Under the pieces are notes generated by a model. The model was given only the letters and a program-made list of their open reading frames with translations. It was not told the DNA's origin and ran no database searches. The translations under genes and the position numbers were made by a program. Below, one piece after another: positions 1 to 15,617 of a stretch of DNA of 16,521 bases; positions within the stretch are counted from its first letter, which is position 1; each line of letters starts with the position of its first letter. The stretch comes from Candidatus Thorarchaeota archaeon (GTDB lineage Archaea; Asgardarchaeota; Thorarchaeia; Thorarchaeales; Thorarchaeaceae): contig PRDI01000056.1 of NCBI GenBank assembly GCA_003345595.1, positions 1-16,521 of the forward strand. The letters run 5' to 3'.

Positions 1-291
1 TGTCAAGACCTGACCGATGGTCAGAAATCCACAATAAACCCCAAGAGCTCGAAGTGGCGCACACTGGAGTTCTTGGCGTCCCAGTCTGTTAAACGCGAGT
101 ACATGGTTCTATCCCGAGGGTACGGGCAGTCTGTTCAGCTGATGGATGCAAAGACATTCACAACGGTAGACGTTGTGGAGACCCCGCTGAGTTCGGAGTG
201 GCGCTCCGGAAGCAGAGTGTTTCTGGTTGAGATCGATGGTGTTCTTTACCCCTTGCCCGAATCTGCTGCCCTTGAATCTGATGCCGTGTAG
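1..291 (+). CDS. nmd3: NMD3 family large-subunit ribosome biogenesis factor, C-terminal part (5'-truncated by window edge)
   Basis: Frame 1 is open from base 1 (CQDLTDGQK...) to TAG at 289-291. 'EYMVLS...VQLMDAKTFTTVDV...GSRVFLVEIDG' resembles the SH3/OB (eIF5A-like) C-terminus of NMD3. It sits upstream of aIF1A-RIO1-KH, consistent with archaeal ribosome-biogenesis clustering. Confidence 0.65.
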   Translation, partial: CQDLTDGQKSTINPKSSKWRTLEFLASQSVKREYMVLSRGYGQSVQLMDAKTFTTVDVVETPLSSEWRSGSRVFLVEIDGVLYPLPESAALESDAV

Positions 292-412
292 AACTGATGG
301 CCGTTTTCGTCGTGGGAAATCTCTTCGCACGAGTATGACAGAAGTAACCCGACCAAGCTCAGTGCGAGGCCTTGGCTGTCAAAGATCGATTGAATGGCTT
401 TGCGTCGCTACG

Positions 413-420
413 CTTAAATG
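413..420 (+). promoter_or_regulatory. Putative TATA box for aIF1A
   Basis: CTTAAATG about 60-70 nt upstream of the likely start codon, in a roughly 190-nt intergenic gap. Confidence 0.4.
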
Positions 421-479
421 CCAACGGACCCACCCGATGGGAAAGGCCCCTGAAACTGCACCGTATGGCCGCTCAATGG

Positions 480-821
480 ATGATCACATTGTCTGACGAC
501 AAAGACGTAGCTCATGACTTTGACTCCTCGTCTGAGGAACTGATAAGGGTGAGAGTTCCCAAGCGGAACGAGGGGGAGATGTTTGGAGTAATAGTGCAGA
601 TGCTTGGCTTCGACAGAGTCAGAGTCAGGTGTGAAGACGGAGAAGTTCGTGTTGGTCGGATTCCAGGTCGCATGAAGAAACGTGTCTGGATGCGAGTTGG
701 GGACACGGTGTTGGTCGTGCCGTGGGACTTCCAGTCGGAGCAGAAATGTGACGTGATTTGGCGATACCGTGATAATGAGCTTGATTGGCTAAAGAAGAAG
801 GGCATTCTCAAGATGTTCTGA
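480..821 (+). CDS. eif1a: Translation initiation factor aIF1A (eIF1A)
   Basis: Motifs 'RVRVP..EGEMFGVIVQMLG..RVRVRCEDG..RVGRIPGRMKKRVWMRVGDTVLVVPWDFQ..KCDVIWRY'. Start is ATG 480 or TTG 489 (GGATGA upstream), not the ORF-track start at 372. Confidence 0.96.
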   Translation: MITLSDDKDVAHDFDSSSEELIRVRVPKRNEGEMFGVIVQMLGFDRVRVRCEDGEVRVGRIPGRMKKRVWMRVGDTVLVVPWDFQSEQKCDVIWRYRDNELDWLKKKGILKMF

Positions 822-874
822 AGTCGAAGTTTCTTATTCATCCGAACCTAGCATAGCGTTGTGCAGGGCCCCGA

Positions 875-1684
875 TTGAGAGGATTGAGCCGCGAATTGAA
901 GCGCATCGATACCAAATATAGGGAGATAGAGTCAGACCTTGAGCGCCAGAGGACAAAGCGGCGGAAGGATGATGATGAGCTGAAGGTTGTGGAGGGCGTA
1001 ATAGACCCACCAACCCTCAAGGCTGTATATCGACTACTCAGTCGTGGCACCCTCCATGCCCTCTATGGTGCAATCAGTACGGGCAAGGAGGCCAATGTAT
1101 ACAGAGGTGTGGACCCGGATGGCAAGTCCGTGGCTGTCAAGATATACAGGGTCACCACGGCAGAGTCTGACTTCATGCTAGAGTATATCGTTGGCGATCC
1201 CCGGTTCAAGAACGTCAAACGCAGGCACAGATCGTTGATTCCTATGTGGGCTATGAAGGAATACAAGAACCTTCAACGTTTCCAAGAGGCAGGAGTGCGA
1301 GCGCCACGACCGATTGCCATACAGCGCAATGTGCTTGTCATGGAGTTCATAGGTAATGTTGATGAAGGTGTGCCCGCACCTCTGTTGAAAAACGTCAGGA
1401 TTCCGTCACCGGCCGAAACTTTCGACGAGATAATAGGGATGATTGACTTGGCGTACAAGAAGGCTGGCTTGGTGCACGCAGACCTAAGTGAGTACAACAT
1501 CCTGTGGCAGAATGGACCCGTTTTCATCGACGTATCGCAGTCTGTACTCGTTAATCATGAAAATGCAGAGCGCTATCTCTATCGAGACCTTGAAAACATC
1601 ACCGCATACTTCCAGAAGCTGGGCGTAGAAACCGAGGACCCCAAGGTCATCATGAAATACATCGTTACCCCTGGTGAAGCATGA
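875..1684 (+). CDS. rio1: RIO1 family atypical serine kinase/ATPase
   Basis: 'ISTGKEANVY', 'AVKIYR', 'WAMKEYKNL', 'NVLVMEFIG', 'LVHADLSEYNIL', 'IDVSQSV'. Start is TTG 875 or 884; CTTATTCA TATA-like element at 833-840. Confidence 0.96.
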   Translation: MRGLSRELKRIDTKYREIESDLERQRTKRRKDDDELKVVEGVIDPPTLKAVYRLLSRGTLHALYGAISTGKEANVYRGVDPDGKSVAVKIYRVTTAESDFMLEYIVGDPRFKNVKRRHRSLIPMWAMKEYKNLQRFQEAGVRAPRPIAIQRNVLVMEFIGNVDEGVPAPLLKNVRIPSPAETFDEIIGMIDLAYKKAGLVHADLSEYNILWQNGPVFIDVSQSVLVNHENAERYLYRDLENITAYFQKLGVETEDPKVIMKYIVTPGEA

Positions 1685-1685
1685 G

Positions 1686-2252
1686 ATGGCGTTTCGCGAG
1701 ACTATTCGAGTGCCGGCAGACAGGGTTGGCGTGATCGTCGGGCGAGATGGTAGAGTCAAGAGAAGAGTCGAGCAGTTGACGAACGCTCGGATAGAAGTGA
1801 CTCCAGATGGGGCTGTCACTATAATGGGCTCTACCGAAACGGCGAATCCGGTCCTCACTTGGAAGGCTCGTGACATTGTCCGGGCAATGGCGAGGGGGTT
1901 TAGTCCCAAGAACGCGTTGACTCTCATCGACGAAGACACGAGGCTTATCGTGATTTCACTACGCGACAGTGTTGGGTCGTCTCCAGACCAGTTGAAAAGA
2001 GTGGCAGGCAGAATAATAGGAGAAAGGGGCCGGACTAGGAGGGTGATCGAGGAGATCACTGAAGCCAAAGTCTGTGTCTATGGTCGAACTGTCTCCATGA
2101 TTGGCACTGATCCCGGGCTAGAGTATGCCACACGGGCACTCACTATGCTAGTTGAGGGTGCACCCCATGCAGTGGTCTACAAGTACCTTGAGAAGATGCG
2201 CAGAGATATGAACCGTCAGAAGGCTGAGCTTTGGGACACGGCTGGACCGTGA
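1686..2252 (+). CDS. KH-domain pre-rRNA processing protein (Dim2/Pno1/Krr1 family)
   Basis: Two KH motifs ('VGVIVGRDGRVK', 'GRIIGERGRTRRVIE'), plus 'ARGFSP' and 'GAPHAVVY'. ATG 1686 directly follows the rio1 stop, with GGTGA at 1673-1677. Confidence 0.93.
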   Translation: MAFRETIRVPADRVGVIVGRDGRVKRRVEQLTNARIEVTPDGAVTIMGSTETANPVLTWKARDIVRAMARGFSPKNALTLIDEDTRLIVISLRDSVGSSPDQLKRVAGRIIGERGRTRRVIEEITEAKVCVYGRTVSMIGTDPGLEYATRALTMLVEGAPHAVVYKYLEKMRRDMNRQKAELWDTAGP

Positions 2253-2314
2253 TGAGCACGTTCGTGTAATACCCGACTCTAATAGGGCTCACCCATATCT
2301 GCTGTCTGAGCAGC

Positions 2315-3829
2315 ATGAGCCAACAAATATCTGGCGGAGAAGCATTCACGAGTATTTCTCCCGCCGAGTTCTTCTACCGGAACCGTCAGATGGCAGGTTT
2401 CGGCAATCCGACACTCGCAGTCTACTCGACGGTGAGAGAGCTTGTTGAGAACAGTCTCGATGCGTGCGATGACTCTGGACGTCTTCCGGTTGTGACTGTA
2501 GATATTACCACAAAGGATTCTGACGCAGTTTCGGTCACTGTTTCGGACAACGGCACAGGAGTTCCGTACGAACATGTTGCTGAGGCCTTTGGCAGAGTGC
2601 TCTTTGGCAACAAGTACAGCGCAAGGCAGAGGCGTGGGACTTTTGGTCTCGGTGCCACGATGGCTGCCTTGTATGGACAGGTGACTACCGATTGTCCTCT
2701 GGAAGTGCATACTCAAACAGAAGAGTCTACAGGCAAAGCATACCGATTGTTCATTGATATAGAGCATAATGTGCCGGTCGTAGAAACAGTAGCAGATCTC
2801 GGCCGGGAGGGCCCGGGTACATCTGTCACAGTCCATCTGAAAGGAGATTTCAAGCGTGCGCAGGACCGTGTCCTTGAGTACCTTCGAATGACTAGTGTTG
2901 CCAGTCCTCATGCAAGATTATTGCTCAGGGTCAATGCAGTCCCACAGGCTGAATTCGGCCCATGGACGGATACTCCGCCGAGGCCAACCACGGCTTCGAA
3001 GCCTCATCCCAGAGGGGCAGATGTTGAACTGCTGAAAAGAATGATTTCAGGCAACAGTGAGAAGCGGCTGAAGGACTTCCTGACAGGTTCATTCCAACAG
3101 ATTGGAGATCGGACGGCATCAAGATTACTCAAGTACATGTGTCTTGATCCTCGCAAGAGTGTAGGATCATTTACACGTGAGGAAGTATCCCTTCTGAGCG
3201 CGGCGCTCCGCAGCTTTGATGGCTTCGATCGTCCCGAGGCTGACTGTCTGAGCCCCCTGGGGAAGGAGGTCTTCCTGACCTCAGTGGGCGCGACGTTTGA
3301 AGTGTCATTCAGCACATACTCTAGAAGAGGGCCGTCCGACTGGGACGGAAATCCCTTCATCATCGAAGGGGTACTGGCAATCGGAACTGGACTCCCACCA
3401 TCTGAAGTGCCAACTCTTTACAGGTTCGCCAATAGGGTTCCTCTACTCTACGACTCGAGCGAGGACGTCTTCATGAAATCACTAAAGAAGATTGACTGGA
3501 CTCGATATGGCCTGACCGCATCTCAGCCAGTTTCGGTGTTTATTCATCTGTGCTCTACGCGAGTGCCCTATAGGGCCGCTGGAAAACAGTCAATAGCTCC
3601 GATTCCTGAAATCGAAGCAGAAGCACTTCCTCTCTTTAGAGAGATGGGCCGGGCTTTCTCCAAATCGGCGGAGAAGATTGCACGTTCAGCCCATGACATC
3701 AAGAAGCTCCGAGAGTTCGCGAAGTCCTTTAGAATGGTAGCAGGATTCGGAGCAGCTCTCGCTGAGTCAGAACCCCCGTCCACCGACCATCTTGTGGCTT
3801 CTCTCTTCGAGGTGAACGATAATGTCTGA
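2315..3829 (+). CDS. top6B: DNA topoisomerase VI subunit B
   Basis: N-terminal strap 'SISPAEFFYRN..MAGF'; GHKL motifs 'ELVENSLDA', 'DNGTG', 'RGTFGLG'; 'KPHP'; H2TH region; transducer 'RFANRVPLLY' and 'STRVPY..AGKQSIA'. Confidence 0.97.
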   Translation: MSQQISGGEAFTSISPAEFFYRNRQMAGFGNPTLAVYSTVRELVENSLDACDDSGRLPVVTVDITTKDSDAVSVTVSDNGTGVPYEHVAEAFGRVLFGNKYSARQRRGTFGLGATMAALYGQVTTDCPLEVHTQTEESTGKAYRLFIDIEHNVPVVETVADLGREGPGTSVTVHLKGDFKRAQDRVLEYLRMTSVASPHARLLLRVNAVPQAEFGPWTDTPPRPTTASKPHPRGADVELLKRMISGNSEKRLKDFLTGSFQQIGDRTASRLLKYMCLDPRKSVGSFTREEVSLLSAALRSFDGFDRPEADCLSPLGKEVFLTSVGATFEVSFSTYSRRGPSDWDGNPFIIEGVLAIGTGLPPSEVPTLYRFANRVPLLYDSSEDVFMKSLKKIDWTRYGLTASQPVSVFIHLCSTRVPYRAAGKQSIAPIPEIEAEALPLFREMGRAFSKSAEKIARSAHDIKKLREFAKSFRMVAGFGAALAESEPPSTDHLVASLFEVNDNV

Positions 3830-4874
3830 CGCTACTGACCCCCAGAATGCTCTCACGCTATTGGGAAGACGGGTTGTCCAGAGCATCATTGAGGGCAGCT
3901 TTCCCACTTTGGAGATACCCGATCGAAGCACTGAGAACATAGTCTTCGACCCAGACCAGCGTCAGTTCGTCCTCGGTGGTTCTCGAGTCGTAAGAAACTC
4001 GAGCAACATCAGGCATGTCAAGAGCTTTGCGCAGCTGCTCTGGACTGCGTACTTCGCAAAGGAACTGCTAAAGGCCTCACGTACCAGCTCGCTCAGAGAC
4101 CTGTACTATTCGAGCGAGGCCTTCGGCGTGAAGTTCACAGATCAATCCGAGTCGGACCGTGTGGTGACGGATCTAGAGTCCCTAATTGGCCTCGCTCGAG
4201 AAGACTTCGGTGTGTTTCCGGAGGAGCATTCATCAGTCTACGGGCAAGTGACAATGCGCTACACGGTACCGGGTTATGATGGACGCGAGGTGGAGCTGAC
4301 TGTCAGCCCCGACGGGCTGCCGATTGGCCCTGCACTGATGACAGCAGAACCTGTTAGAACCGGCGCTGAGATAGTGCTGGCGGTTGAATCCGGTGGGATG
4401 TTTGGGCGACTGATAGAGACGCGTGCTTGGGAGCGGTTCAAGGCGATCCTAGTCCAGCTCGGAGGACAGCCACCAAGATCCACGCGTCGGCTTTTACGTC
4501 GCTTTCATGAGGTGTTGGGACTGCCAGTGTACATATTCACAGATGGTGACCCTTGGGGAATGCATATCGCTCAAGTGATCATCACTGGCAGTGCAAATGC
4601 CGCTCATGTCAGAGGACTCACCGTACCCGATGCCAAGTGGATAGGAGTCACTCCTGCTGATATCAACAACTACTCTCTTCCAACCGAGCAAATGAATGAT
4701 GCTGATCTCAAGAGACTGGATGAGTTGACCCAAGACCTGAGGTACACAGGCAGCATCTGGCAGGAGCACATCCGGGGTTTCAGAGAGTTACGAAGAAAGG
4801 CGGAACAACAGGCCTTCAGCAGGTACGGCATGGACTATGTTGTTGACACATACCTGCCAGACAAGCTTCACTAG
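3822..4874 (+). CDS. top6A: DNA topoisomerase VI subunit A (Spo11 family)
   Basis: Catalytic 'LRDLYY', TOPRIM 'VESGGMF' and 'FTDGDPWG', C-terminal 'KAEQQA'. Overlaps top6B by 8 nt. Confidence 0.97.
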   Translation: MSDATDPQNALTLLGRRVVQSIIEGSFPTLEIPDRSTENIVFDPDQRQFVLGGSRVVRNSSNIRHVKSFAQLLWTAYFAKELLKASRTSSLRDLYYSSEAFGVKFTDQSESDRVVTDLESLIGLAREDFGVFPEEHSSVYGQVTMRYTVPGYDGREVELTVSPDGLPIGPALMTAEPVRTGAEIVLAVESGGMFGRLIETRAWERFKAILVQLGGQPPRSTRRLLRRFHEVLGLPVYIFTDGDPWGMHIAQVIITGSANAAHVRGLTVPDAKWIGVTPADINNYSLPTEQMNDADLKRLDELTQDLRYTGSIWQEHIRGFRELRRKAEQQAFSRYGMDYVVDTYLPDKLH

Positions 4875-5908
4875 AGCCATCCAATCCCCAACGGGTATGC
4901 AAACAGAAGCAAGAGGACGCCCGAGTAGGCAAGCACTGCTTGGAGCAGGACAAGCAACATGACGTTCTTCTTCTCTGTTATTCTCTTGGAGAAGTACGGC
5001 AGTAACCAGTACATCGTGTATGGTCCGGCAACTTCCAGTGTTCCATCAGGACGTGGCGATGCGAACTTTGCATACTTCGCGCCCGAACGTTTGACATGTA
5101 TTCTGTATATGATGTACATAAGGAAGTTCGCAAGATAAGTGACGAAGAGTATCGCAGCCAGCCTGTCCATGTTGCCGAGTATGAGTGCAGCGGCCATCGT
5201 TGCCCCCATTGGCAGAAGACCGACATCGCCTGACAACACCTTTGCTGGATACCTGTTGAAAACCAAGAATGCAATAGATGCCCCAAGTAACGCACCTGCG
5301 ATGGTTGCCGCGTCAATCTGCCCCTGTGTGTTGCTCTCCAGAGTGAAGAATGGCGACAGAACCACATAGACTACTAATGCTGAGGAATTCACACTGGCCA
5401 ATCCCGCTTCAAGGCCGTTCATTCCAGCATACATGTTGGTGGCATCGATTATGAAGGTCGTCATAAGAGGTACTACGACGAGCGGATACAATATGCCTAG
5501 ATTCACTGTGCCTATCACAGGCAGCGACATGGTCGGAGTGCCTACGCTCATAGCAACCATGGGAATCGATGCGAGCAGAGGGAGGGCAATCTTTGTCCTG
5601 TTCCTGAAGTCCAAGTTATCATCAAGCAACCCGATCAGCCCTGCCATCAGGATGGACACAAGCGCCGCCATCAGCCCTGGAGCAACGACCTCTTGCTCTT
5701 GAAACGTGGTGATTCCAATGACGATCAGCAGCGTTGTCACTACTGCAAAAAGCATGATGATACCGCCCCCTTTCGGTATCGCCGGTTTCTCTGGTTTATG
5801 AACATCAATTCCCGTCCTGCCTTTCTCGATGAGCATCCTGATAGTGCTGGGCATGGCTATCATCACGAATGCGAACGCAATCACAACAGCAATGAGAATC
5901 GTGAGCAT
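4871..5908 (-). CDS. UDP-GlcNAc:dolichol-phosphate GlcNAc-1-P transferase (AglH/Alg7/DPAGT1-like, MraY/Glycos_transf_4 family)
   Basis: Multi-TM protein with 'GIDVHK', 'IPKGGG', 'GLLDD', 'TNMYAGMNGLEAG', 'FNRYPAKVLSGDVG'. Start is probably ATG 5908 (MLTIL...); the ORF extends to 5986. Its stop overlaps the top6A stop in CTAG 4871-4874. Confidence 0.85.
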   Translation of the reverse strand: MLTILIAVVIAFAFVMIAMPSTIRMLIEKGRTGIDVHKPEKPAIPKGGGIIMLFAVVTTLLIVIGITTFQEQEVVAPGLMAALVSILMAGLIGLLDDNLDFRNRTKIALPLLASIPMVAMSVGTPTMSLPVIGTVNLGILYPLVVVPLMTTFIIDATNMYAGMNGLEAGLASVNSSALVVYVVLSPFFTLESNTQGQIDAATIAGALLGASIAFLVFNRYPAKVLSGDVGLLPMGATMAAALILGNMDRLAAILFVTYLANFLMYIIYRIHVKRSGAKYAKFASPRPDGTLEVAGPYTMYWLLPYFSKRITEKKNVMLLVLLQAVLAYSGVLLLLFAYPLGIGWL

Positions 5909-6001
5909 GATAGAGTCTTCCGGGTCGGGCTGACTCTGGCTGGGTTTTACACTTTTCGGATAATGAATGCTTTCTCGTGCCATCATCTGTGATGTCGAAG
6001 G

Positions 6002-6032
6002 TACATTTCGTGTATGTACGAAACGTATTTAA
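6002..6032. promoter_or_regulatory. Imperfect 26-bp palindrome abutting a TATA-like TATTTAA in the divergent promoter region
   Basis: TAC-A-TTTCGT-GTATGT-ACGAAA-C-GTA (6002-6027), overlapping TATTTAA (6026-6032). Confidence 0.5.
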
Positions 6033-6119
6033 CGACTCCAGAAACTCGACCGCATCGTTTGCGACTAGGCCAGCCCAGAGGCGATAAGTCGCTGAGAACC
6101 TCGTCTGCGGTGACAAGTC

Positions 6120-9077
6120 TTGAGCCTGCTCCATACAAGAATAGTGCCTCTTGCTCTTTTCATGCTGCTTTTCGTATGCAGTTTTGCAGTACTTGCTCCA
6201 TCGGCAATGACACCGGGACTTGGCACGCCGGTCCAGGACTCACAAGGATACACCGCAGCAGGTTTGGCGTCTAATGCATCTGTTCCCTATGTGGATCGCC
6301 ACTATGGTCTTGCAGATGGGATAGTCGATCCGAAGGAGTACTCCTACAACTACACAGACCCGGTCAGCGGAGTCACAGTGTACCTTGAGCACAACTCTAC
6401 TGTCCTCTTCATAGGGCTCTCTGCTCGCACATCTGGCTGGATTGGACTTGCATGGATGAACTATACTGGGGAATTCACTACAGACGGCATCAACGGCAGT
6501 GACCTGATTCTTGGCTATGCCCCAGGCACTCCTCACGAAGTTGTTCAGAGGGTAACGGGGTCTGAGGCCGTCACCGTGCACTACAAATTGCTCCTGAGAA
6601 ACGGGACTCTGATCCAAGAGGGCAATGTGCCTGATGACACCTCCACAAAAGCGATCCGGGACGAGAGTCTTCTCGATGGCTACAAGCGCCAAGTGTATGG
6701 CATGAGGATCGGAGAAACACGGCACTTCATAATCCCGGCTGCCGAGGGGTATACAACATCCACCGAGCCTCTGTATGGTCAGGACTTGGAATATGTCATA
6801 ACGCTCACCCGGATTGGCACCAACTTCAACAACCCCTCGCGCACAAGCCGTATCACGTACAGTGATTGTCATGGAATCGGCACCTTCCAACACCTCACTG
6901 ACGCCAATCGGAGTCAGATAATTGCTGCAAATGCCAGCGATGATGGTACAACAACGCAAATCGAGTACTTCGTCAGAATGAACAGCACTGACACCAACGA
7001 TGTTCCGTTGCTAAACGCCACGGATATCTGGTATCCTTTCGTATCCATGTTTGGTGCAACAGAGGACCTCAACACTCTCCCTGTTCAGCATAGCGACTGG
7101 TCGAGCCCACTTCTAGCCCGGCTGACCCCAAATGAGGCACCCACGATCACTGTCGAGAGCCCTAAGACAGACGCATCAGTTGCGTGGGTGACCAATATTG
7201 AGGTCAATGCAACGGACAACACTTTTGTCAGGCGTGTATTCTATCGTGTTGACGATGGAAACTGGACAGAGCTAGACTACAACTTCCAGACGTTTCTATG
7301 GGAGTCTGTCCTCGACCTCTCCAAGTATGTGAATGGCACACATGTATTCCACTTCAATGGGACTGATCCTTCAAACATCACGAGTGTTGTCTCAGTGAAT
7401 GTGACAATCAGCCGACCCTACCTTCCGTTACTAGGAATGAAGCTTGATGTCACACGGACAGTGACAACACTTCTGTTCCACGGCACACAGGTGACAGACG
7501 AGTTCACAGTCCAGAACAACGGCTCCGCTCCGATTGGAGCTATCGAGCTGTTTCTGCCTCAGCCTTTCGCCTCGAATTTCCTCTCATTGACAGCACAGGA
7601 CGGCTCGGCGAGACAACTCAGGGTCGTGCAACTTGACGATGTCGGGGGTATGTTGCACTGGAGAGTCCACTTCGCTGAAACAGTTGGCTTCCAGGAGTCC
7701 TATACGGTGAAGATGGTGATGTTCCTTCACTCATTGCACACCCTAACGAACTTCGATTCAAACCTGTACGAGATCAAGTTTCTGAAGTATCCAGTCGTCC
7801 CTTATGTCCTCACCTCTGCATCCCTCAGCATGGGTCTAAGGAGTGGTGACACTGCTCAAGGGGTATCACCGGAGGGCAGAGCTAGCAATCTCCCACCGAT
7901 GAAAATTGAGGAGTTCACGCTCCCAATCAAGTCATATACGCCGCTGATAGTGGCGACGCGTATCACTACGGTAATTGTGGACCCTTGGGGTTGGTTGACC
8001 TATCATGAAACGATTTCGATCGAGAACATAGGTCCTGCAAAAGAGAGCACTTTTGCACTTATCTTCCCAACATACTCGACAGACATCAAGGTCTATGACG
8101 AGGTGGGAATACTACAGGAGTCACAGAAAACTGTAGCGGGCGACTTGTGGAACGGAACAATCCGCTTAGATGTCAATCTGAATGAACGTTTTGGGGAAGT
8201 CCAGTCGTTCTGGCCTGGCTTTCGCTACACATTCCAGATAGACTACAAGGTCTTGGCCTCCAGCCACCAGAGCCCCGCTGGCGGAGCTAGTCTTCTGACG
8301 ATTCCGATAAGCACAATGGGTTATATGACCGTCGTGACGCACACTGTTGATGTAGTCCTGCCCGCATCAGTCGATGTCTTAGAGGTGTCCAAGGGCTACA
8401 GACTTCTGTACGGAGTCTTCGATGACACGCTCAGATTCGTGAGCACTAACACAACTGAGAATAACCCACCGACTGTCACATTACTCTATCGCGCTTCCCT
8501 GTGGACTGCGATGAGGCCTCTTGCCTTCTCATTCATCTTCGGGCTCTTTGCTTTCGTCTACGTAGCGTACAGGAAACTCAAGCTGCCTGCGGCGATGGTC
8601 ACGACTGCAACTTCAGAAGAAATACCTGCAGAGGCCCAACAGGCTGGTGCGCCTCCTGAGCTTCTGAGAAGGTTTGCAAGCACCTATTCAAAGAAGACCT
8701 CGTTGGATCTCGACTTGGAGAAGCTGGAGGCAGCATTGAAGCGAGGAAAAGTGAAGAAGAGAGAATTCACAATCCGCGAGGGCGACATAAAGACTCAGCT
8801 CGAGAAGATCGACAAAGAGCTAAGTGGTCTCAAGGATGAGGTCATGTCCCATGGATCGAAGTATAGAGACATGGTCGCACAGCTTGAGCTGCAAGAGGAG
8901 CGAATTGCCGGTGCAAAGGCCGGCCTCAATCAGCTTCTTATCCGGAAGAAGAAGCAGAGAATCAGTGCCGGGGCCTTTGAGAAGACGCGCCAAGATTACC
9001 TCAAGGCCATGAAGAAGGCGGTAGCTGCCACAGACCGCATCCTCTTGTCAATTCAGGAAGAAGCTGGAGAGGTCTGA
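6120..9077 (+). CDS. Type I membrane glycoprotein: signal peptide + DOMON domain (split by FKBP-like insert) + Ig-like domain + ribophorin I/OST1-like lumenal region + TM + cytoplasmic helical bundle
   Basis: TTG start with GGTGA at 6109-6113. Hydrophobic signal at aa 8-26. DOMON motifs 'SGWIGLAW..GINGSDLILGY', 'DCHGIGTFQHLTD', 'DDGTTTQIEYFVRMNSTDTND'. FKBP-like aa ~143-233. Ig-like aa ~338-432. Ribophorin-like 'VTRTVT..VTDEFTVQN', 'VIVDPWGWLTYHETISIEN', 'VYDEVG', 'VDVVLP'. TM at aa ~800-817, followed by a K/R/E-rich helical tail. Confidence 0.78.
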   Translation: MSLLHTRIVPLALFMLLFVCSFAVLAPSAMTPGLGTPVQDSQGYTAAGLASNASVPYVDRHYGLADGIVDPKEYSYNYTDPVSGVTVYLEHNSTVLFIGLSARTSGWIGLAWMNYTGEFTTDGINGSDLILGYAPGTPHEVVQRVTGSEAVTVHYKLLLRNGTLIQEGNVPDDTSTKAIRDESLLDGYKRQVYGMRIGETRHFIIPAAEGYTTSTEPLYGQDLEYVITLTRIGTNFNNPSRTSRITYSDCHGIGTFQHLTDANRSQIIAANASDDGTTTQIEYFVRMNSTDTNDVPLLNATDIWYPFVSMFGATEDLNTLPVQHSDWSSPLLARLTPNEAPTITVESPKTDASVAWVTNIEVNATDNTFVRRVFYRVDDGNWTELDYNFQTFLWESVLDLSKYVNGTHVFHFNGTDPSNITSVVSVNVTISRPYLPLLGMKLDVTRTVTTLLFHGTQVTDEFTVQNNGSAPIGAIELFLPQPFASNFLSLTAQDGSARQLRVVQLDDVGGMLHWRVHFAETVGFQESYTVKMVMFLHSLHTLTNFDSNLYEIKFLKYPVVPYVLTSASLSMGLRSGDTAQGVSPEGRASNLPPMKIEEFTLPIKSYTPLIVATRITTVIVDPWGWLTYHETISIENIGPAKESTFALIFPTYSTDIKVYDEVGILQESQKTVAGDLWNGTIRLDVNLNERFGEVQSFWPGFRYTFQIDYKVLASSHQSPAGGASLLTIPISTMGYMTVVTHTVDVVLPASVDVLEVSKGYRLLYGVFDDTLRFVSTNTTENNPPTVTLLYRASLWTAMRPLAFSFIFGLFAFVYVAYRKLKLPAAMVTTATSEEIPAEAQQAGAPPELLRRFASTYSKKTSLDLDLEKLEAALKRGKVKKREFTIREGDIKTQLEKIDKELSGLKDEVMSHGSKYRDMVAQLELQEERIAGAKAGLNQLLIRKKKQRISAGAFEKTRQDYLKAMKKAVAATDRILLSIQEEAGEV

Positions 9078-9148
9078 TTTCCAGTCCCATTTAGCAAGTC
9101 TTATCACATATGAAGAGGACCAGAGATGCCCTAATGGGGGATGCCGTT

Positions 9149-10003
9149 ATGGCCAGAAGTACACCCTTTGACAGAGAGAAAGTTAGCGTGCGCAAGACTT
9201 TGGGTTCCGGCACCAAGTCCCTAGAGATGTATCAATACTTGAGCAGATCTCCGAAGGTCCAGTCCTATCTTCGTAGTGCAAACCGTATGGCAGTGTCCCG
9301 TTTGGGGTACACAGACCATGGCCCGGTTCATGCTGAAGTGGCCACGTGGAACGCGCTCACAGCCTTTGACATCCTTGACCAGACTTTTCGCCCCAATGTT
9401 GTTGCAGAGGGGATTGGCGACACGGATGACGCACGCATGGTCGTGCTGGCATCCACTTATCTACATGATATAGGCATGGTCGTTCACCGCAATGAGCATC
9501 CCCAAGCTGCAGTCCCTCTTGCCAGCGCGATTTTAGAAGAGAAGCTCGCAGAGCTCTATGAGGATCCCGGAAAGGCGACGGACATTCTGTCGTTCATGCT
9601 CCATGGAATATACGCACATGATGATGACACACAGTGTCTGACTTTCGAAGCCGGTGTCACGAAGCTGGGCGACGGCTGCGACATGACAAAAGGTAGGACT
9701 ACCATTCCATTTCAGAAAGGCAAGGTCGACATCCATTCATTGAGCGCCATGGCAATAAACGATGTCATACTTGAGCGTGGCACTGAGAAACCGCTTCAGA
9801 TAACGGTCGATATGGACAATCCGGCTGGCGTATTCCAAGTCCAAGCCGTTCTTGAAAAGAAGATTTCGACATCGGGACTGAGTGATTACGTTTCCATAGA
9901 GGCCTTGGTGAATGGTGATCGACTGATCCTGTCTCAAGTCAAGAGGCTTTTCAGAGTTGAGATGGCCGACTCTCCACCTTCGATAAGTGTCAAAGAGAAA
10001 TGA
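9149..10003 (+). CDS. HD-superfamily metal-dependent phosphohydrolase (COG3294-like)
   Basis: 'GYTDHGPVH', 'YLHDIG..HR..H', 'IYAHD', 'DGCDMTKGR', 'DIHSLSA', 'AGVFQV'. Start is uncertain (9110/9134/9149); a TATA-like CTTATCA at 9100-9106 favours the later starts. Confidence 0.88.
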   Translation: MARSTPFDREKVSVRKTLGSGTKSLEMYQYLSRSPKVQSYLRSANRMAVSRLGYTDHGPVHAEVATWNALTAFDILDQTFRPNVVAEGIGDTDDARMVVLASTYLHDIGMVVHRNEHPQAAVPLASAILEEKLAELYEDPGKATDILSFMLHGIYAHDDDTQCLTFEAGVTKLGDGCDMTKGRTTIPFQKGKVDIHSLSAMAINDVILERGTEKPLQITVDMDNPAGVFQVQAVLEKKISTSGLSDYVSIEALVNGDRLILSQVKRLFRVEMADSPPSISVKEK

Positions 10004-10007
10004 TGGG

Positions 10008-10116
10008 TGGTAGCCCCGCCAGGGTTCGAACCTGGGTCGGCGAGGGTCTTCACCTCATAGGCTCAAGGCTATGTGGCTCCAAAACCCGCCATGCTGGACC
10101 ACTACACCACGGGGCT
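10008..10116 (-). tRNA. tRNA-Gln(TTG) with a 33-nt canonical intron at 37/38 (10046-10078); CCA encoded
   Basis: Reverse complement: AGCCCCG acceptor (A1-U72, typical of archaeal tRNA-Gln), GTGT/GCAT D-stem, GCGGG-TT-TTG-G|intron|C-CTCGC, CCAGG-TTCGAAC-CCTGG, CGGGGCT-A-CCA. BHB motif: TTTT/GAAG central helix with GG|A and AC|C bulges. Mature length 76 nt. Confidence 0.95.
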
Positions 10117-10148
10117 GTTTCTACCGGACGATTGCTTTGATTAGCATA

Positions 10149-10469
10149 TCAGGCTTCGGATTTGAGGCCAAAGGGTACCCCATTCTTGAGTATATCTGCT
10201 GGGATGCGTTCTTTCCATCTCTCCAGAAAGGCGTTCTCCTCTCTCCTCTGTCGTCCGTCCATTCTCAAGTCATCTGGTAGCATGCAGGGGATTCCCTCAA
10301 TGACTGGATACCACCGACCGCATTTGGGGCATGTGATAAGCGCTTCGTCTATTTCCTCCACTGTTTTCTCTTCTGCCTCTACGCTGTGTGCGCCGTACAC
10401 TTCAAGATGGAGTTCACTCCTACAGTCGCTTCGAGGGCAGACCAAGATTTCCATCAGCCAGCGCTTCAT
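10149..10469 (-). CDS. trm112: Trm112 methyltransferase activator
   Basis: 'MKRWLMEILVCP...C', 'EIDEALITCPKCGRWYPVIEGIPCMLPDDLR', with all four Zn-knuckle cysteines present. Confidence 0.92.
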   Translation of the reverse strand: MKRWLMEILVCPRSDCRSELHLEVYGAHSVEAEEKTVEEIDEALITCPKCGRWYPVIEGIPCMLPDDLRMDGRQRREENAFLERWKERIPADILKNGVPFGLKSEA

Positions 10470-10510
10470 TCACATTCTCTCCCTGACCTGTTCTGGTTCG
10501 ACTGTAACAG

Positions 10511-10518
10511 TTTAAAAA
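10511..10518 (-). promoter_or_regulatory. TATA box for trm112 (TTTTTAAA on the minus strand)
   Basis: The only strongly AT-rich box in the trm112/gcvPA divergent gap, about 42 nt upstream of the trm112 ATG. Confidence 0.55.
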
Positions 10519-10615
10519 CAATTCTGGAAGGTAACATCCGTCCAACCAATCCAAAAGCGTATTTGGCGGACATGTCGCGCCTTCAGTCGCGCCAAGTGCA
10601 GGCCGGTGTAGTCTC

Positions 10616-12019
10616 ATGGAGTCCGGACACCCATACCTTCCAATAACAAAAGAAGATGAAGAGGAGATGCTCAAATCGATTGGACGCGAGTCGCTCGAGG
10701 AGCTATTCTCTACCATTCCTGAGAAGTTCAGACTGAAGCGTGAGTTGAAGATACCTGATTCACACAGTGAGCTCGAGGTCACACGCCGGATTCAGGAACT
10801 GGCTGGCAGGAACCAATCCCGAGAGGATGGACGCATCTTCTTAGGATCCGGAGTCGGACTGCACTACATCCCAGCAGCAGTCCGTGCCATAGTCGGGCGC
10901 TCTGAGTTCGTGACAGCATATACAAGTTACCAACCAGAGATAAGTCAAGGAATGCTTCAGACACTCTTTGAGTACCAAAGTCTCATGGCGGAGCTCTTGA
11001 GCGTTGATGTCGTTAACAGTAGCATGTACGACATGGCCAGTGCTCTTGCGGAAGCCGCAAGGATGACAGTCCGCATTGGTGCCCGGCGTTCACGCTTCTT
11101 GGTGCCCAGTACAATCAATCCAATGCACTTCAGAGTACTGTCTACGTATGCTGAACCAGCTGCTATTGAAGTACAGAAGGTGGAGTACGATCACGCTACC
11201 GGACTGATGTCGATAGCCGATCTCAGGTCGAAAGTCGATGACACTGTCGCAGGAGTCTATATTGAGAACCCGAGTTATCTTGGCTTCATAGAAACTCAAG
11301 TTGACGAAATCAGTAAGGTTGTACATGATGCAGGTGCATTCCTCGTTGCTGGTGTGGACCTGTTGTCTCTAGGTGTCATGCGTCCCCCGGGCAGCTATGG
11401 CGCCGACATAGTCATAGGTGAGGGACAGGAGCTGGGATCGCCCGTGTCCTATGGGGGCCCGCTTCTGGGAGTATTCGGATGCAGAATGGACAGGCGGCTC
11501 GTCTATCAGATGCCTGGGCGGCTGGTGGGCATGACAAGGACCACCACAGAGCCCTATGAACGGGGTTTTGTGCTCACTCTGAGTCCGCGCGAACAGCACA
11601 TCCGAAGGGAGAAGGCAACGAGCAACATATGTTCGAATGAGGCTCTGCTCGCGGTCACTGCCGCCATCTACCTGTCACTTTTGGGTCCTGCTGGCCTGAA
11701 GCAGATTGGCGAAGCAATAGCCTACAGGTCAAACTATGCTGCAAAGGAACTCAGTACAATACCTGGAGTACTAGCCCCAGCGATTGGCAGGGCTGTCTGG
11801 AAGGAGTTTGTGGTCCGGTTTGAAAAGGGTGTGTCTGTCAAGGCTGTGCATGATGGCCTTCTGGCTCACCATATGCACGGTGGCGTATCACTGACCAAGG
11901 AGTTCCCTGCTCTTGGCGAGGCAATGCTGCTCAGCGTGACAGAAGTTCATACCAAGGCCATGATAGATGATCTTGTGAAGACAGTGAGAGAGACTGTGAC
12001 ACGAGGAGGTAGACGCTGA
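10616..12019 (+). CDS. gcvPA: Glycine dehydrogenase (decarboxylating) subunit 1
   Basis: 'PYLP', 'FLGSG..HYIP', 'EFVTAYTSYQPEISQGMLQTLFEYQS', 'NSSMYD', 'GGPLLG', 'MPGRLVG', 'REQHIRREKATSNICSN'. Confidence 0.97.
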   Translation: MESGHPYLPITKEDEEEMLKSIGRESLEELFSTIPEKFRLKRELKIPDSHSELEVTRRIQELAGRNQSREDGRIFLGSGVGLHYIPAAVRAIVGRSEFVTAYTSYQPEISQGMLQTLFEYQSLMAELLSVDVVNSSMYDMASALAEAARMTVRIGARRSRFLVPSTINPMHFRVLSTYAEPAAIEVQKVEYDHATGLMSIADLRSKVDDTVAGVYIENPSYLGFIETQVDEISKVVHDAGAFLVAGVDLLSLGVMRPPGSYGADIVIGEGQELGSPVSYGGPLLGVFGCRMDRRLVYQMPGRLVGMTRTTTEPYERGFVLTLSPREQHIRREKATSNICSNEALLAVTAAIYLSLLGPAGLKQIGEAIAYRSNYAAKELSTIPGVLAPAIGRAVWKEFVVRFEKGVSVKAVHDGLLAHHMHGGVSLTKEFPALGEAMLLSVTEVHTKAMIDDLVKTVRETVTRGGRR

Positions 12020-13587
12020 TGGTAACGCAAGCGATTGATGATAGCAAGACCCACCAAGCCAAGTGGGATGAGCCATTGATCTTCGAGCGTTCCACCCCCG
12101 GAATGGTAGGGCACATGTTGCCATCCGTTGAGGATGGGATAAGGAAGACAGTAGGCTCAATTGAGTCGCTTGTGCCCGAACAGATGCGACGCATACAGCC
12201 ACCGAAACTACCTGAGATTTCGGAGCTGCAAGTCATACGTCACTTCACACGCTTGTCACAGATGAACTTCGCAGTCAACTTGGGGACTTATCCTCTTGGC
12301 AGTTGCACTATGAAATACAACCCAGCGGTTAATGAATGGGCTGCTGCACTGCCAGCGTTTGCATCGTTGCACCCGTTGCAGGATGTGTCAACTGCACAGG
12401 GTTCACTGGAGATGATGTGGGAACTCGAGCAGTGGCTGAGTGAGATAACTGGCATGGACTCGGTGACGCTACAGCCCGCAGCAGGAGCCCACGGAGAGCT
12501 GACTGGTGTGCTTGTCATGCGGCAGTACCACAAGTGTGTCACAGGAGAGTGTACTCAGCGGAACGAGATGTTGATCCCAGATGCTGCACATGGCACAAAC
12601 CCCGCATCAGCAGCCATGGCAGGTTATGAAGTGGTTGTGATACCTTCCAACAAGGAAGGGTTTGTTGACACTGATGCGCTCAAGAGCGCAGCCGGTCCTC
12701 ATACAGCTGGTCTGATGTTGACAAACCCGAACACAATCGGCCTGTTCGAGAAAAACATAGAGGAGATTGGAGGTATAGTACACGACGCGGGCGGCCTGCT
12801 GTACTATGACGGTGCGAATTTCAACGCAATTGTGGGTATGGTTCGCCCTGGTGATATGGGGTTCGATGTAGTGCACATGAACCTCCACAAGACTTTCTCA
12901 ACGCCGCACGGTGGGGGCGGCCCCGGCTCAGGTCCAGTTGGTGTGAAGCAGAATCTTGCTGAGTTTCTGCCGGTCCCTCGGGTCGTGAAGAAAAGGGATG
13001 GCAGCTTCGACTTGGACTATGATCTACCTCGGTCCATTGGCAAGGTTCATGGCTTTTATGGCAATTTCGGGATTCTGCTAAGAGCCTATGCGTACATATA
13101 CGCACTGGGTCGACGGGGGCTCAAGAGAGCGTCTGAAACAGCAGTTCTCAATGCAAACTACTGTGGATATCACGTTAGTCGGATTCCGGGCTTCAGTCTG
13201 CCATATTCTCGGGACGATCCACGGATGCATGAGTGTGTTGTTTCAGCGGAGGATCTAAAAGCCAATACGGGCGTGGCGGCGATGAACGTGGCAAAACGTC
13301 TTCTCGATTTGGGAGTTCATGCTCCAACTATATACTTCCCGTTAATAGTGCCCGAGGCACTCATGATTGAACCTACAGAGTCCGAGTCAAAACAGGAGCT
13401 GGACGCGCTCATCGAAGCAATGCAACGGGTTTCTCGCGAGGCGTTTCAGGATCCTGAGAGGGTCACTAGCGCTCCGCATAGCACCGCTCGACGTCGTCTT
13501 GATGAGTACAGAGCTGCCCATCCGAAGACACTCACTCTTTCTTGGAGAATGCACTTGGAGCGGCAAGCCGAAGAAGGCGAAAACTAG
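12019..13587 (+). CDS. gcvPB: Glycine dehydrogenase (decarboxylating) subunit 2
   Basis: 'YPLGSCTMKYNP', 'QPAAGAHGE', 'AHGTNPASA', 'YYDGAN', PLP lysine in 'NLHKTFSTPHGGGGPG', 'MIEPTE'. TGATG stop/start coupling with gcvPA. Confidence 0.97.
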   Translation: MVTQAIDDSKTHQAKWDEPLIFERSTPGMVGHMLPSVEDGIRKTVGSIESLVPEQMRRIQPPKLPEISELQVIRHFTRLSQMNFAVNLGTYPLGSCTMKYNPAVNEWAAALPAFASLHPLQDVSTAQGSLEMMWELEQWLSEITGMDSVTLQPAAGAHGELTGVLVMRQYHKCVTGECTQRNEMLIPDAAHGTNPASAAMAGYEVVVIPSNKEGFVDTDALKSAAGPHTAGLMLTNPNTIGLFEKNIEEIGGIVHDAGGLLYYDGANFNAIVGMVRPGDMGFDVVHMNLHKTFSTPHGGGGPGSGPVGVKQNLAEFLPVPRVVKKRDGSFDLDYDLPRSIGKVHGFYGNFGILLRAYAYIYALGRRGLKRASETAVLNANYCGYHVSRIPGFSLPYSRDDPRMHECVVSAEDLKANTGVAAMNVAKRLLDLGVHAPTIYFPLIVPEALMIEPTESESKQELDALIEAMQRVSREAFQDPERVTSAPHSTARRRLDEYRAAHPKTLTLSWRMHLERQAEEGEN

Positions 13588-13656
13588 GCGAAACTGAGCT
13601 CGACCGACGCCCTACCAAAAGCATTAGAGCGTTGCGAGGAGAACAGCGAAACAGCG

Positions 13657-14028
13657 ATGATGATTCAGAAGAGAGTCGGTCGCCACAATATCGTTCTGGA
13701 CGCTAGGTCTGTCGGAAACGACCTATTGGTGGTGATCTACGGTGGCGATGAATACCACATTGGTGCCGTCGCGGTGGCCTATCCCACAATGAGTCATTAC
13801 AGAGCAAAAGGTACTGTCAGCCTGAACTCATTGACGCTACCTGGGCACAGTGACTACGTGGTGGCAAATGTCGCAGCCGAGAAGACATGTAAGGCCCTGG
13901 GGGTCACCACGGTTGTGACTGTCGGTATTCACATGGAAAACGCATCAAGAGAGGAGATTGAGCAAGCAGTCAAAGCCGCTGACCTAATGGTGGATGAGAT
14001 GATCGCTCGCCACAAGAAGCTGCCGTGA
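13657..14028 (+). CDS. LpdD / PAC4-like small protein (prenylated-flavin chaperone LpdD-like fold)
   Basis: 'GNDLLVVIYGG..HIGAVAVA', 'LPGHSD', 'VTVGIHMENASREEI', the three-His pattern of the LpdD-like family. Confidence 0.75.
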   Translation: MMIQKRVGRHNIVLDARSVGNDLLVVIYGGDEYHIGAVAVAYPTMSHYRAKGTVSLNSLTLPGHSDYVVANVAAEKTCKALGVTTVVTVGIHMENASREEIEQAVKAADLMVDEMIARHKKLP

Positions 14029-14046
14029 TGTGTGGAGGTGTGTCGG

Positions 14047-14331
14047 TTGCGAATTGTGTTCAAGTCCTTTGGTCAGCTGCGGAGAGTACTCGGTAGTCAG
14101 TCTATTGAGATAGATGTGCCAGAGCAGTCAACGATACGTGATGTCATTGATAGGGTGATAGCCATTGGTGGTGCAAGTGTGAGAAGGCAGGTTATGGAGG
14201 GTGAACGAATAAGTGGGAGTATGATAGTGTTGCTCAACAAGAGGGATATTGACACGCTCCAAGGGGCCAACACTATTCTGAACGAAGGCGATGAAGTAGC
14301 CATACTCCCACACGTTCAAGGGGGCACATGA
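14047..14331 (+). CDS. Ubiquitin-like beta-grasp protein (MoaD/ThiS/SAMP/Urm1-like) ending in GG-T
   Basis: TTG 14047 preceded by a strong SD, GGAGGTG (14034-14040). 'VFKSFGQLR', 'TIRDVI', 'IVLLNKRDI..LQG.NTILNEGDEVAILPHVQGGT*'. Confidence 0.9.
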   Translation: MRIVFKSFGQLRRVLGSQSIEIDVPEQSTIRDVIDRVIAIGGASVRRQVMEGERISGSMIVLLNKRDIDTLQGANTILNEGDEVAILPHVQGGT

Positions 14332-14364
14332 CCGCGGTTCAGAGATTGGACAATCTTGGGCACA

Positions 14365-15366
14365 TCAGTTCCTTCCCTGAACTGTGACATCGATGATCTT
14401 TCCAGTCTTTGCACTTGCTCTAGCCGCCTCTACTATACGAAGGGCTCCGACGCCATCATCAAGACCGACTTTTGGGGCTCCCCCGGTTTCTATGCATTTC
14501 AGGAAGTCATTTATGACCTCCTGAACTGGTTCTCCATAGACCTTAATCGTCGCACCTCTCTCAGTCAGTTTGATAGTCCTGCTATCTGCCGACGGCTCTT
14601 GGTCCAAGTCTTGCACCTTTATGATTTGACCGAACAGGTCTAGAACCAAAGTGCCCTTAGTCCCTGAGATGTCCATCTCTCTTCTTCTGCCTGCATACTG
14701 CCTAGAAAGATGAAAGACGTGCAGAGTACCCATTTCGAGCTTGACGAGCACCGTCGCTGAGTTTATGACACCTCCCTCAGAATCGCATTGTGCATACAGC
14801 TTTGCGTGACCACTGCTTATCCTTGCCATTATGTCAAAGTCGTGGACTCCTATGTCCTCGAAGACATCACCGAGCGAGGCAATTCTCGAGGGTTGAACGA
14901 AGCCCCTCCTGTCATGTATGATTGTCCGAGGGGTGCCAATGGCCCCGGTCTTTATCAGAGCGATTGCTCTCTCGACCACGGGGTTGTAGATCTCGGAGTG
15001 GGACACAATAGTGACTACCTTCTTTGTACGGAGTATGCCAGCAACCCTATTCGCATCCTCGAGCGTGCTGGCCAACGGTTTCTCAATCAGGATCCCCTTG
15101 ATCCTGTCATAGCTCTTGGCAATCTTCTCCGCAATAGCGGCGTGTGTCGATGTTGGCGTTGATATGACAACCCCATCCAATGGGGTTTCGTCGATCATCG
15201 ATTCGAAGTCGCTGTACGCCTTCACGCCGTATGTAGCCGCGATTCTCTGTGCTTTCTCGAGGTCGGTGTCTGCCAGAGCGGCCAATGCACGCATATTGCC
15301 GAGTATCCTCGCGTGTATCTGTCCCATGTTGCCTACACCGATTATCCCTATCCTTGGAATGGCCAT
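14365..15366 (-). CDS. Gfo/Idh/MocA family NAD(P)-dependent oxidoreductase
   Basis: Rossmann 'IGIIGVGNMG', 'STPTSTH', 'IEKP', 'DIGVHDFD'. TATA-like CCTATAAG at 15419-15412. Confidence 0.92.
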   Translation of the reverse strand: MAIPRIGIIGVGNMGQIHARILGNMRALAALADTDLEKAQRIAATYGVKAYSDFESMIDETPLDGVVISTPTSTHAAIAEKIAKSYDRIKGILIEKPLASTLEDANRVAGILRTKKVVTIVSHSEIYNPVVERAIALIKTGAIGTPRTIIHDRRGFVQPSRIASLGDVFEDIGVHDFDIMARISSGHAKLYAQCDSEGGVINSATVLVKLEMGTLHVFHLSRQYAGRRREMDISGTKGTLVLDLFGQIIKVQDLDQEPSADSRTIKLTERGATIKVYGEPVQEVINDFLKCIETGGAPKVGLDDGVGALRIVEAARASAKTGKIIDVTVQGRN

Positions 15367-15463
15367 CCTTGAGAACCCCTGTTGTTTCCCCTCTGTCGAG
15401 CCCTAGACTCCCTTATAGGTTCCACTCCTGCGCCGTACAACAGACCTGTTTCAAGAAGCTTGA

Positions 15464-15581
15464 TGGTGCGGAGGGAGGGATTTGAACCCTCGATTCGAGC
15501 GCTCAAGCAAGAGCTAGGAGCGTACCCCTACGAGACAGGCGCCTCAGGCCTGCGCCTTTGACCTAGCTTGGCAACCTCCGC
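15464..15581 (-). tRNA. tRNA-Leu(GAG) with a 30-nt non-canonical intron at the 3' side of the variable arm (15494-15523); CCA encoded
   Basis: Reverse complement: GCGGAGG-TT-GCC-AAGCTAGGTCAAA-GGC-G-CAGGC-CT-GAG-GC-GCCTG-TCTCGTAGGGGT|ACGCTC...GAGCGCTCGAA|TC-GAGGG-TTCAAAT-CCCTC-CCTCCGC-A-CCA. Removing 30 nt gives a standard 88-nt archaeal tRNA-Leu. Confidence 0.92.
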
Positions 15582-15610
15582 AGTTTCCTCGCAAATCCTG
15601 TGCAAACCAA

Positions 15611-15617
15611 TGATAAG
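15611..15617 (-). promoter_or_regulatory. Putative TATA box for tRNA-Leu
   Basis: CTTATCA about 30 nt upstream of the mature 5' end; the same heptamer occurs at 9100-9106. Confidence 0.5.

Follow-up and report, generated by a model that had tools for sequence, protein, structure and literature searches.

The window analysed here is a stretch of 16,521 nucleotides from a Candidatus Thorarchaeota archaeon (assembly GCA_003345595.1, contig PRDI01000056.1, positions 1-16,521), and the gene in question occupies positions 6120-9077 of its forward strand. It encodes a protein of 985 amino acids (aa), which is the Thorarchaeales orthologue of ribophorin I/OST1, a non-catalytic helper subunit of the N-glycosylation enzyme oligosaccharyltransferase (OST), with an extra outward-facing N-terminal head of about 400 aa. 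In this head, an FKBP-type domain is nested in a loop of a DOMON-fold beta-sandwich, and an Ig-like domain follows (DOMON[FKBP]-Ig). Ribophorin I/OST1 counts among the eukaryote-signature proteins found in Asgard archaea; even for the eukaryotic protein, little is understood of what it does. Asgard OST1 has been described in the literature; for the DOMON[FKBP]-Ig head, searches on ribophorin/Asgard/OST and on ribophorin/Thorarchaeota/FKBP found no paper with a ribophorin fusion of this kind. In public annotation the fused proteins are called "FKBP-type peptidyl-prolyl cis-trans isomerase" or "hypothetical", so that surveys of eukaryotic signature proteins can easily overlook thorarchaeal OST1.

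The open reading frame (ORF) is uninterrupted. Its start, a TTG codon at 6120, is uncertain by at most 14 codons, with an ATG at codon 15. The gene and its parts are listed below, with the evidence for each in brackets.

6120-9077, forward strand: whole gene, fused OST1/ribophorin I, 985 aa (ORF; one homologue aligned from residue 2 to the end)
6120-6221, forward strand: N-terminal hydrophobic signal peptide or anchor, aa 1-34 (hydropathy segment 1-34)
6270-6536, forward strand: first half of the DOMON-fold beta-sandwich, aa ~51-139, with the invariant motif DGIxDPxEY (VIA-align Z 12-16 against DOMON-superfamily structures, model residues 12-300; conserved columns)
6537-6827, forward strand: FKBP-type domain of the short type without the IF chaperone insert, aa ~140-236, nested in the DOMON sandwich (Pfam FKBP_C; VIA-align)
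6828-7136, forward strand: second half of the DOMON-fold beta-sandwich, aa ~237-339 (VIA-align; H258, M310 and H324 conserved)
7137-7418, forward strand: Ig-like spacer domain of the Big_7 type, aa 340-433 (Big_7 match; fold Z 14.0)
7437-8498, forward strand: lumenal/extracellular region of ribophorin I, two beta domains, aa 440-793, with the DPWGW motif at aa 620-625 (Foldseek; profile; unfused PF04597 proteins)
8499-8579, forward strand: single transmembrane (TM) helix, aa 794-820 (model helix 363-389; hydropathy segment 797-816)
8655-9062, forward strand: four-helix bundle on the cytoplasmic side, aa 846-981; its homologue in OST1 of the Lokiarchaeon 'Ca. Prometheoarchaeum syntrophicum' MK-D1 binds ribosomes (phmmer; profile; model)

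The C-terminal half was modelled with AlphaFold2 (aa 432-985, pLDDT 91.9). In the model, beta domains are followed by a TM helix (aa 794-820), a disordered linker, and, on the cytoplasmic side, four long helices (aa 846-981). In a Foldseek comparison of this model with the PDB, RPN1/Ost1 chains took all of the top eight places (E 9.5e-30 to 4.8e-18). The next matches, sandwiches of the integrin and aminopeptidase type, came at E 4e-8 and weaker, 10-20 orders of magnitude behind. The C-half is therefore not just a generic aminopeptidase-N-like sandwich, the outcome that would have refuted the original prediction. Fold and topology are the same as in the eukaryotic proteins (human 6S7O and 8B6L; yeast 6EZN and 6C26), with TM-scores of up to 0.66 by target, at a structure-based identity of 13-15%. 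The differences are that RPN1 begins directly with the ribophorin domains and that yeast Ost1 does not have the cytoplasmic bundle.

An exhaustive HMMER search against 1.84 billion representative proteins led to the same family. Over their whole length, about 150 unfused proteins of 560-620 aa align with aa ~440-982 (E 1e-40 to 1e-13; identity 20-27%), and those tested match Ribophorin_I (PF04597) above the Pfam cut-off, with up to 116 bits over the full model. Among 34 fused homologues, 10 match PF04597 directly (best E 4e-8). With the single sequence, phmmer aligned aa 843-975 with the crystal structure of the cytoplasmic domain of MK-D1 OST1 (8WHN, chain 8whn_A; E 1.9e-6). MK-D1 OST1 (8WHN; PMC11417166) and the unfused OST1 proteins of the phylum, of about 575-635 aa, resemble the whole C-half end to end, including the basic surface of the bundle, where the patch RKKKQR (aa 942-947) is nearly invariant among the homologues. 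They differ in being just ~20-27% identical and in having no DOMON[FKBP]-Ig head, so that their frames are about 400 aa shorter.

A joint profile of fused C-halves and unfused archaeal OST1 matched human RPN1 over residues 8-604 with an E-value of 1.5e-45, which is carried partly by the unfused rows. The same profile matched 8WHN at E 4e-38 and yeast Ost1 at E 7.5e-22. When the profile was built from the fused homologues alone, its PDB matches were to 8WHN and to FKBPs and none was to RPN1, which was reached only once unfused archaeal OST1 had been added. In the alignment of the joint profile with human RPN1, VDPWGW stands opposite VSHWGN, the same pairing of motifs as in the original prediction, which had also held that eukaryotic RPN1 is free of the N-terminal extension. 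Indeed, residues 8-604 of the human protein (607 aa) align to the C-half only.

One result speaks against this identification. A direct Pfam/NCBIfam scan of the 985-aa protein gave no Ribophorin_I match, and the PF04597 model had no match at E <= 10 anywhere in the genome, this gene included. The model is too insensitive for this clade and unusable for the search of a second copy. As it had missed even this gene, the genome was searched with the protein itself and with the joint profile. By sequence, lumenal fold, topology, and four-helix bundle, the protein belongs to the ribophorin I/OST1 family, as originally proposed.

The predicted topology is of type I, with a signal peptide, outward domains, one TM segment, and a cytoplasmic tail. 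The distribution of NxS/T sequons follows this layout: all 19 lie within aa 30-793 and hence on the side predicted to face outward; the head alone has 16, the tail none. Several are nearly invariant in the homologue alignment (N92, N161-G-T, N288-S, and N413-A-T). Because of their number in the head, their predicted outward position, and this conservation, the head is probably a glycoprotein itself, and a heavily N-glycosylated one.

The N-half was modelled separately (aa 40-438, pLDDT 90.4). Foldseek against the PDB and an ESM-Atlas shape search with this model were dominated by Ig-like matches and uninformative on DOMON and FKBP; the three folds of the head were separated by an exhaustive VIA-align structure search. 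The FKBP fold (aa ~140-236) was matched by the SlyD core (Z 12.0), FKBP2 (Z 11.8), SlpA (Z 11.2), and FKBP11 (Z 10.5) at a root-mean-square deviation (rmsd) of 1.8-2.4. It is also recognized by Pfam FKBP_C (PF00254; aa 146-229, 30.5 bits, cut-off 21.1), which lies above its cut-off in all 34 homologues. For the Ig-like fold (aa 340-433), the Z-score was 14.0 with an rmsd of 1.6 over 90 residues; the corresponding family, Big_7 (PF17957), matched aa 341-408 with 23.5 bits, just below the cut-off of 24.1, and is found in 15 of the 34 homologues (best E 1.9e-8).

The DOMON-type fold spans aa ~51-339. Six structures of the superfamily matched model residues 12-300, on both sides of the FKBP insert, at Z 12.3-15.8, among them ethylbenzene dehydrogenase gamma (2IVF_C, Z 15.8), NxrC (7B04_C, Z 14.8), the DOMON domain of dopamine beta-hydroxylase (4ZEL, Z 13.5), the cytochrome domain of cellobiose dehydrogenase (1D7C, Z 12.6), and CBM9 (1I82, Z 12.3). 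The beta-sandwich is the same over 141-182 residues (rmsd 2.8-4.1), whereas identity is about 10% and the thorarchaeal sandwich is interrupted by an FKBP domain of about 95 aa. Pfam DOMON (PF03351) does not match this protein. With these results, all four domain calls of the original prediction (DOMON, FKBP-like, Ig-like, and ribophorin I) were supported by Pfam, profile, or model searches, and the boundaries that it gave to the segments proved accurate to within a few residues.

The best structural matches of the sandwich (2ivf_C, 7b04_C, and 1d7c) are heme-b DOMON-type subunits, and H91, H258, M310 (32 of 39 sequences), and H324 in the sandwich are conserved. Both observations would fit a heme-b domain as in cellobiose dehydrogenase, ethylbenzene dehydrogenase gamma, and NxrC, which would make the head an extracellular redox module unrelated to folding. 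We consider this very improbable. None of the conserved His and Met residues was placed at a heme-ligand position (no residue-level superposition was made), and Pfam DOMON was reached weakly in just 4 of 34 homologues (best E 5.5e-4). Moreover, the fusion partner and the neighbourhood point to glycosylation and secretion, there is no redox partner nearby, and an FKBP domain nested within an electron-transfer domain has no obvious rationale.

Heads also occur without OST1. Free-standing paralogues of 567-598 aa, about 40% identical to the fused head, consist of DOMON[FKBP]-Ig, an extra Ig-like domain, a TM anchor, and a short tail. At least two genomes of the family carry them (G336:C125:6303-7427 and G318:C23:20716-21870), and they are also among the metagenomic representative proteins (P0110, P0114, and P0115). 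Given these membrane-anchored forms, the head is an autonomous module. As to the source of its FKBP domain, a BLASTP comparison with the cytoplasmic FKBP of the genome aligned only a stretch of 29 residues, which gives no sign of a recent internal duplication.

The distribution of the fusion was surveyed in 400 genomes of the phylum; the genome of the window is 83% complete. Of the 85 genomes in the window's family, 81 had the full-length head, as did the one genome of the sister family, always in open frames of 985-1034 aa. Outside this order, matches to the head were confined to isolated Ig, FKBP, or DOMON fragments. The OST1 profile, by comparison, matched in 377 of the 400 genomes (89 of 90 of high quality), with frames of 575-635 aa outside the order. 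Most genomes of the family, this one included, have a single OST1 match, and searches with the protein and the profile found no second, unfused ribophorin in this 83%-complete genome, a check that the original prediction had suggested. The fused form appears to be the family's only OST1.

In the tree of the ribophorin part, which is unrooted and comes from a quick search, the 26 fused rows are set apart by a single branch (SH-aLRT 100, one change), a pattern consistent with one fusion event. The head is thus lineage-specific: it is fixed in the whole of one order, and the OST1 proteins of the rest of the phylum are without it. Being confined to one order, and with the fused forms on one side of one branch, it is a derived addition and not an ancestral feature.

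Free-standing heads and unfused OST1 both occur naturally, and a separate FKBP/DOMON surface protein and an ordinary OST1 might have been joined wrongly by assembly or gene calling. The probability of such an artefact is close to nil. The frame is uninterrupted here and free of stops over 985-1034 aa in about 80 independent genomes, some of them assembled as single contigs or in megabase contigs. The whole architecture is also found in 103 protein clusters of 930-1000 aa from many sources, mostly labelled Thorarchaeota, and column identity averages 61% across the full length of the homologue alignment. An assembly chimera is ruled out by the recurrence in about 80 genomes together with conserved synteny, and the survey across Asgard genomes proposed in the original prediction has thus settled this point in favour of a real fusion. 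In one relative, the head (a 501-aa frame, G312:C183:4176-5345) and the OST1 body (a 588-aa frame, G312:C8:23919-25571) are on separate contigs, which could be due to a contig break, a split gene, or a duplicate.

The neighbourhood of the gene connects it with glycosylation. Two features lie directly upstream.

4871-5986, reverse strand: divergent neighbour, GT4 polyprenyl-phosphate GlcNAc-1-P transferase, Alg7/AglH/DPAGT1-like (Pfam Glycos_transf_4; human DPAGT1 is the best solved relative, E 1.7e-18)
5987-6119, no strand: divergent intergenic region of 133 nt between the two N-glycosylation genes (flanking ORFs)

Enzymes of the Alg7/AglH type catalyze the first step of lipid-linked glycan synthesis. 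The head-to-head adjacency of OST1 and GT4 was kept in all 10 relatives examined, as was the order of genes around it (RIO1, KH, Top6B, Top6A, divergent GT4, OST1, a 297-aa HD-like gene, and a small ORF), sister family included. GcvP1 and GcvP2 come next in the nine of these relatives that belong to the window's family and were not found at the sister-family locus. The genes of the window are archaeal: RIO kinase, KH protein, topoisomerase VI B and A, and glycine-cleavage P1 and P2.

Several further observations concern the window. The 297-aa ORF (9110-10003, forward strand), 33 nt downstream of OST1, has an HD-like YLHDIG motif; it matched no Pfam family and had only faint YedJ/phosphohydrolase matches. 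It is more conserved than OST1 (74-81% identity across most genera of the family, 45% in the sister family), and its position is constant. Each OST gene adjoins half of the glycine cleavage system: GcvT-GcvH lie directly upstream of STT3 (G000:C75:34493-39118), and GcvP1-GcvP2 (window 10616-13587) come after OST1 and two small genes. This pairing may be a remnant of one ancestral cluster or a coincidence. A proteasome-assembly-chaperone-like gene (13657-14028, forward strand; Pfam PAC_bac, E 5.9e-32) comes after the GcvP genes, a position kept in relatives of the same family. Full-model Rfam tRNA matches were obtained at 10011-10116 and 15467-15581, both on the reverse strand. Their lengths of 106 and 115 nt suggest that both tRNA genes probably contain introns. 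ARAGORN reported the former as "tRNA-???" with a four-base anticodon and missed the latter.

Candidate partners were found elsewhere in the genome. STT3/AglB is present in one copy of 930 aa with WWDYG at 549-553, and an OST3/6 homologue lies 4 kb upstream of it. The other peptidyl-prolyl isomerases (PPIases) are one long FKBP, one cyclophilin, and one parvulin, all without a signal peptide or TM segment. The nested FKBP is consequently the only predicted extracellular PPIase-type domain in the assembled genome, which makes a foldase or holdase role at the site of secretion and glycosylation plausible. A complex prediction of the head (aa 40-438) with the lumenal domain of STT3 (aa 485-930) gave a best score of 0.24, for a mark of 0.32, and speaks neither for nor against a contact.

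We propose that OST1 is positioned with its head at AglB, the Sec translocon, and the ribosome, where the head would act as a tethered isomerase, holdase, or adaptor. We consider this fairly probable. As in the human and yeast OST structures, the C-half would lie beside the catalytic AglB/STT3 and the Sec translocon. The basic four-helix bundle would contact the translating ribosome from the cytoplasmic side, as suggested by MK-D1 OST1, whose cytoplasmic domain pulls down ribosomes; the human domain binds ribosomes too (PMC11417166). In the least certain step, the head would hold an FKBP-type proline-binding pocket at the place where nascent secreted chains emerge and become glycosylated. As a tethered factor, it could then isomerize prolyl bonds or act as a holdase, or it could be an adaptor for docking; the DOMON sandwich would be a scaffold for the FKBP domain or a second ligand site, and the Ig domain a spacer. 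The more specific claim, that the head is a working co-translocational foldase or holdase physically within an archaeal multi-subunit OST, is a tentative one, and we are inclined to doubt it.

The pocket of the nested FKBP was mapped in 39 sequences by HMMER alignment to FKBP2 combined with FKBP12 numbering (Y26, F36, D37, R42, F46, V55, I56, W59, Y82, and F99). The equivalents of Y26 and Y82 are kept in 39 and 37 of the 39 sequences, respectively, and the positions of F36, V55, and I56 are hydrophobic. Y155, Y188, Y211, and Y225 are conserved in 36-39 of the sequences, and L185 is likewise nearly invariant. FKBP2/FKBP13 (2PBC) and the FKBP core of SlyD (3CGM) have the same fold (Z 11.8-12.0, rmsd 1.8-1.9 over 84-92 residues) with the Y26 and Y82 equivalents kept; the thorarchaeal domain differs from them in pocket residues (see below) and in being inserted in another domain, not stand-alone.

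A membrane-bound FKBP next to OST is known from human cells. FKBP11 has its FKBP domain in the lumen, crosses the membrane with a TM helix, contacts the ribosome through a C-terminal helix, and docks with CCDC134 beside OST-A on the ribosome-bound translocon (PMC12804085). Both RPN1 and FKBP11 are contained in PDB entries 9N9J and 9YGY. The two systems would share an FKBP domain on the outer or lumenal side next to OST (fold match Z 10.5) and a membrane anchor with a ribosome-contacting cytosolic part. However, the human protein is separate, small, and recruited in trans, and its pocket is buried by CCDC134, whereas the thorarchaeal FKBP domain belongs to the same chain as OST1 and sits inside a DOMON sandwich. 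The parallel is an analogy of function only and not a sign of common descent.

A number of observations weigh against a folding function of the head at this place. In the pocket, D37 is replaced by Q/E in 36 of 39 sequences and F46 by S in 35, and W59 is changed to Y, F99 to Y, and R42 to P. Because the pocket departs in this way from the FKBP12 consensus, catalysis is uncertain, and PPIase activity may be weak or absent. The IF insert is the source of chaperone activity in archaeal and SlyD-type FKBPs; the nested domain does not have it, as SlyD was aligned over only 84 residues. A weak isomerase, a holdase, or a docking adaptor are all possible functions of such a domain. We infer the contact with AglB/STT3 and the ribosome from homology only. 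OST1 and STT3 are not neighbours, being on different contigs here and about 100 kb apart in relatives with long contigs, and, as the free-standing copies show, the head can work without OST1. Finally, the authors of the FKBP11 study argue from the buried pocket for a role as an adaptor and not as an isomerase (PMC12804085).

These points lend some weight to a head that is not catalytic. Its FKBP pocket might bind a fixed partner, as in FKBP11-CCDC134, or the DOMON domain might be a CBM9-like lectin for glycans on fresh glycoproteins or the S-layer; the head would then recruit or retain proteins at OST and would not isomerize prolines. The D37 and F46 substitutions, the missing IF insert, and the precedent of FKBP11 agree with this, as do the presence of CBM9 among the DOMON-fold matches (Z 12.3) and the membrane anchoring of head paralogues on their own. 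Conversely, the near invariance of Y155, L185, Y188, Y211, and Y225 would be expected if the pocket still bound proline-like ligands, no candidate for a partner emerged, and no sugar-binding residues were mapped. Overall, we consider a non-catalytic adaptor or lectin rather unlikely.

A different explanation is that archaeal "OST1" is not an OST subunit and acts at the Sec translocon as a ribosome-docking or nascent-chain factor independent of AglB/STT3. The genomic separation of OST1 and STT3 would suit this explanation, and the sole tested activity of any Asgard OST1 is ribosome binding by the cytoplasmic domain (PMC11417166). We nevertheless regard it as improbable, since the conserved head-to-head pairing with the Alg7-like first N-glycan enzyme ties OST1 to glycosylation and all solved structures of eukaryotic OST contain Ost1/RPN1 as an integral subunit.

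Thus, we retain the positioning of OST1 and its head at AglB, the translocon, and the ribosome as our preferred reading. The original prediction had gone further and described a glycosylation-folding unit in one polypeptide that resembles a proto-endoplasmic reticulum (proto-ER) quality-control system. Its domains, its ribophorin I identity, and the reality of the fusion all stood, but the proto-ER framing was an overreach, because a head confined to one order is derived rather than ancestral. For the same reason of lineage specificity, the head says little about the ancestor of eukaryotes.

For the Thorarchaeales, the finding means that the only OST1 of a whole order has a conserved FKBP-in-DOMON head, which is a testable hint of nascent-chain handling next to OST1. 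It parallels the 2025 finding in human cells that membrane-bound FKBP11 docks beside OST-A, and, with both parts in one polypeptide, a simpler system could serve the study of how folding helpers are positioned at the site of glycosylation. If the foldase or holdase reading were true, an entire Asgard order would have built folding help of the prolyl-isomerase type permanently into the place where nascent chains exit SecY and meet AglB. The protein would then be a natural "Rosetta-stone" fusion that points independently to the human partnership of FKBP and OST (FKBP11 at OST-A), and the coupling of folding and N-glycosylation would have arisen before or outside the ER.

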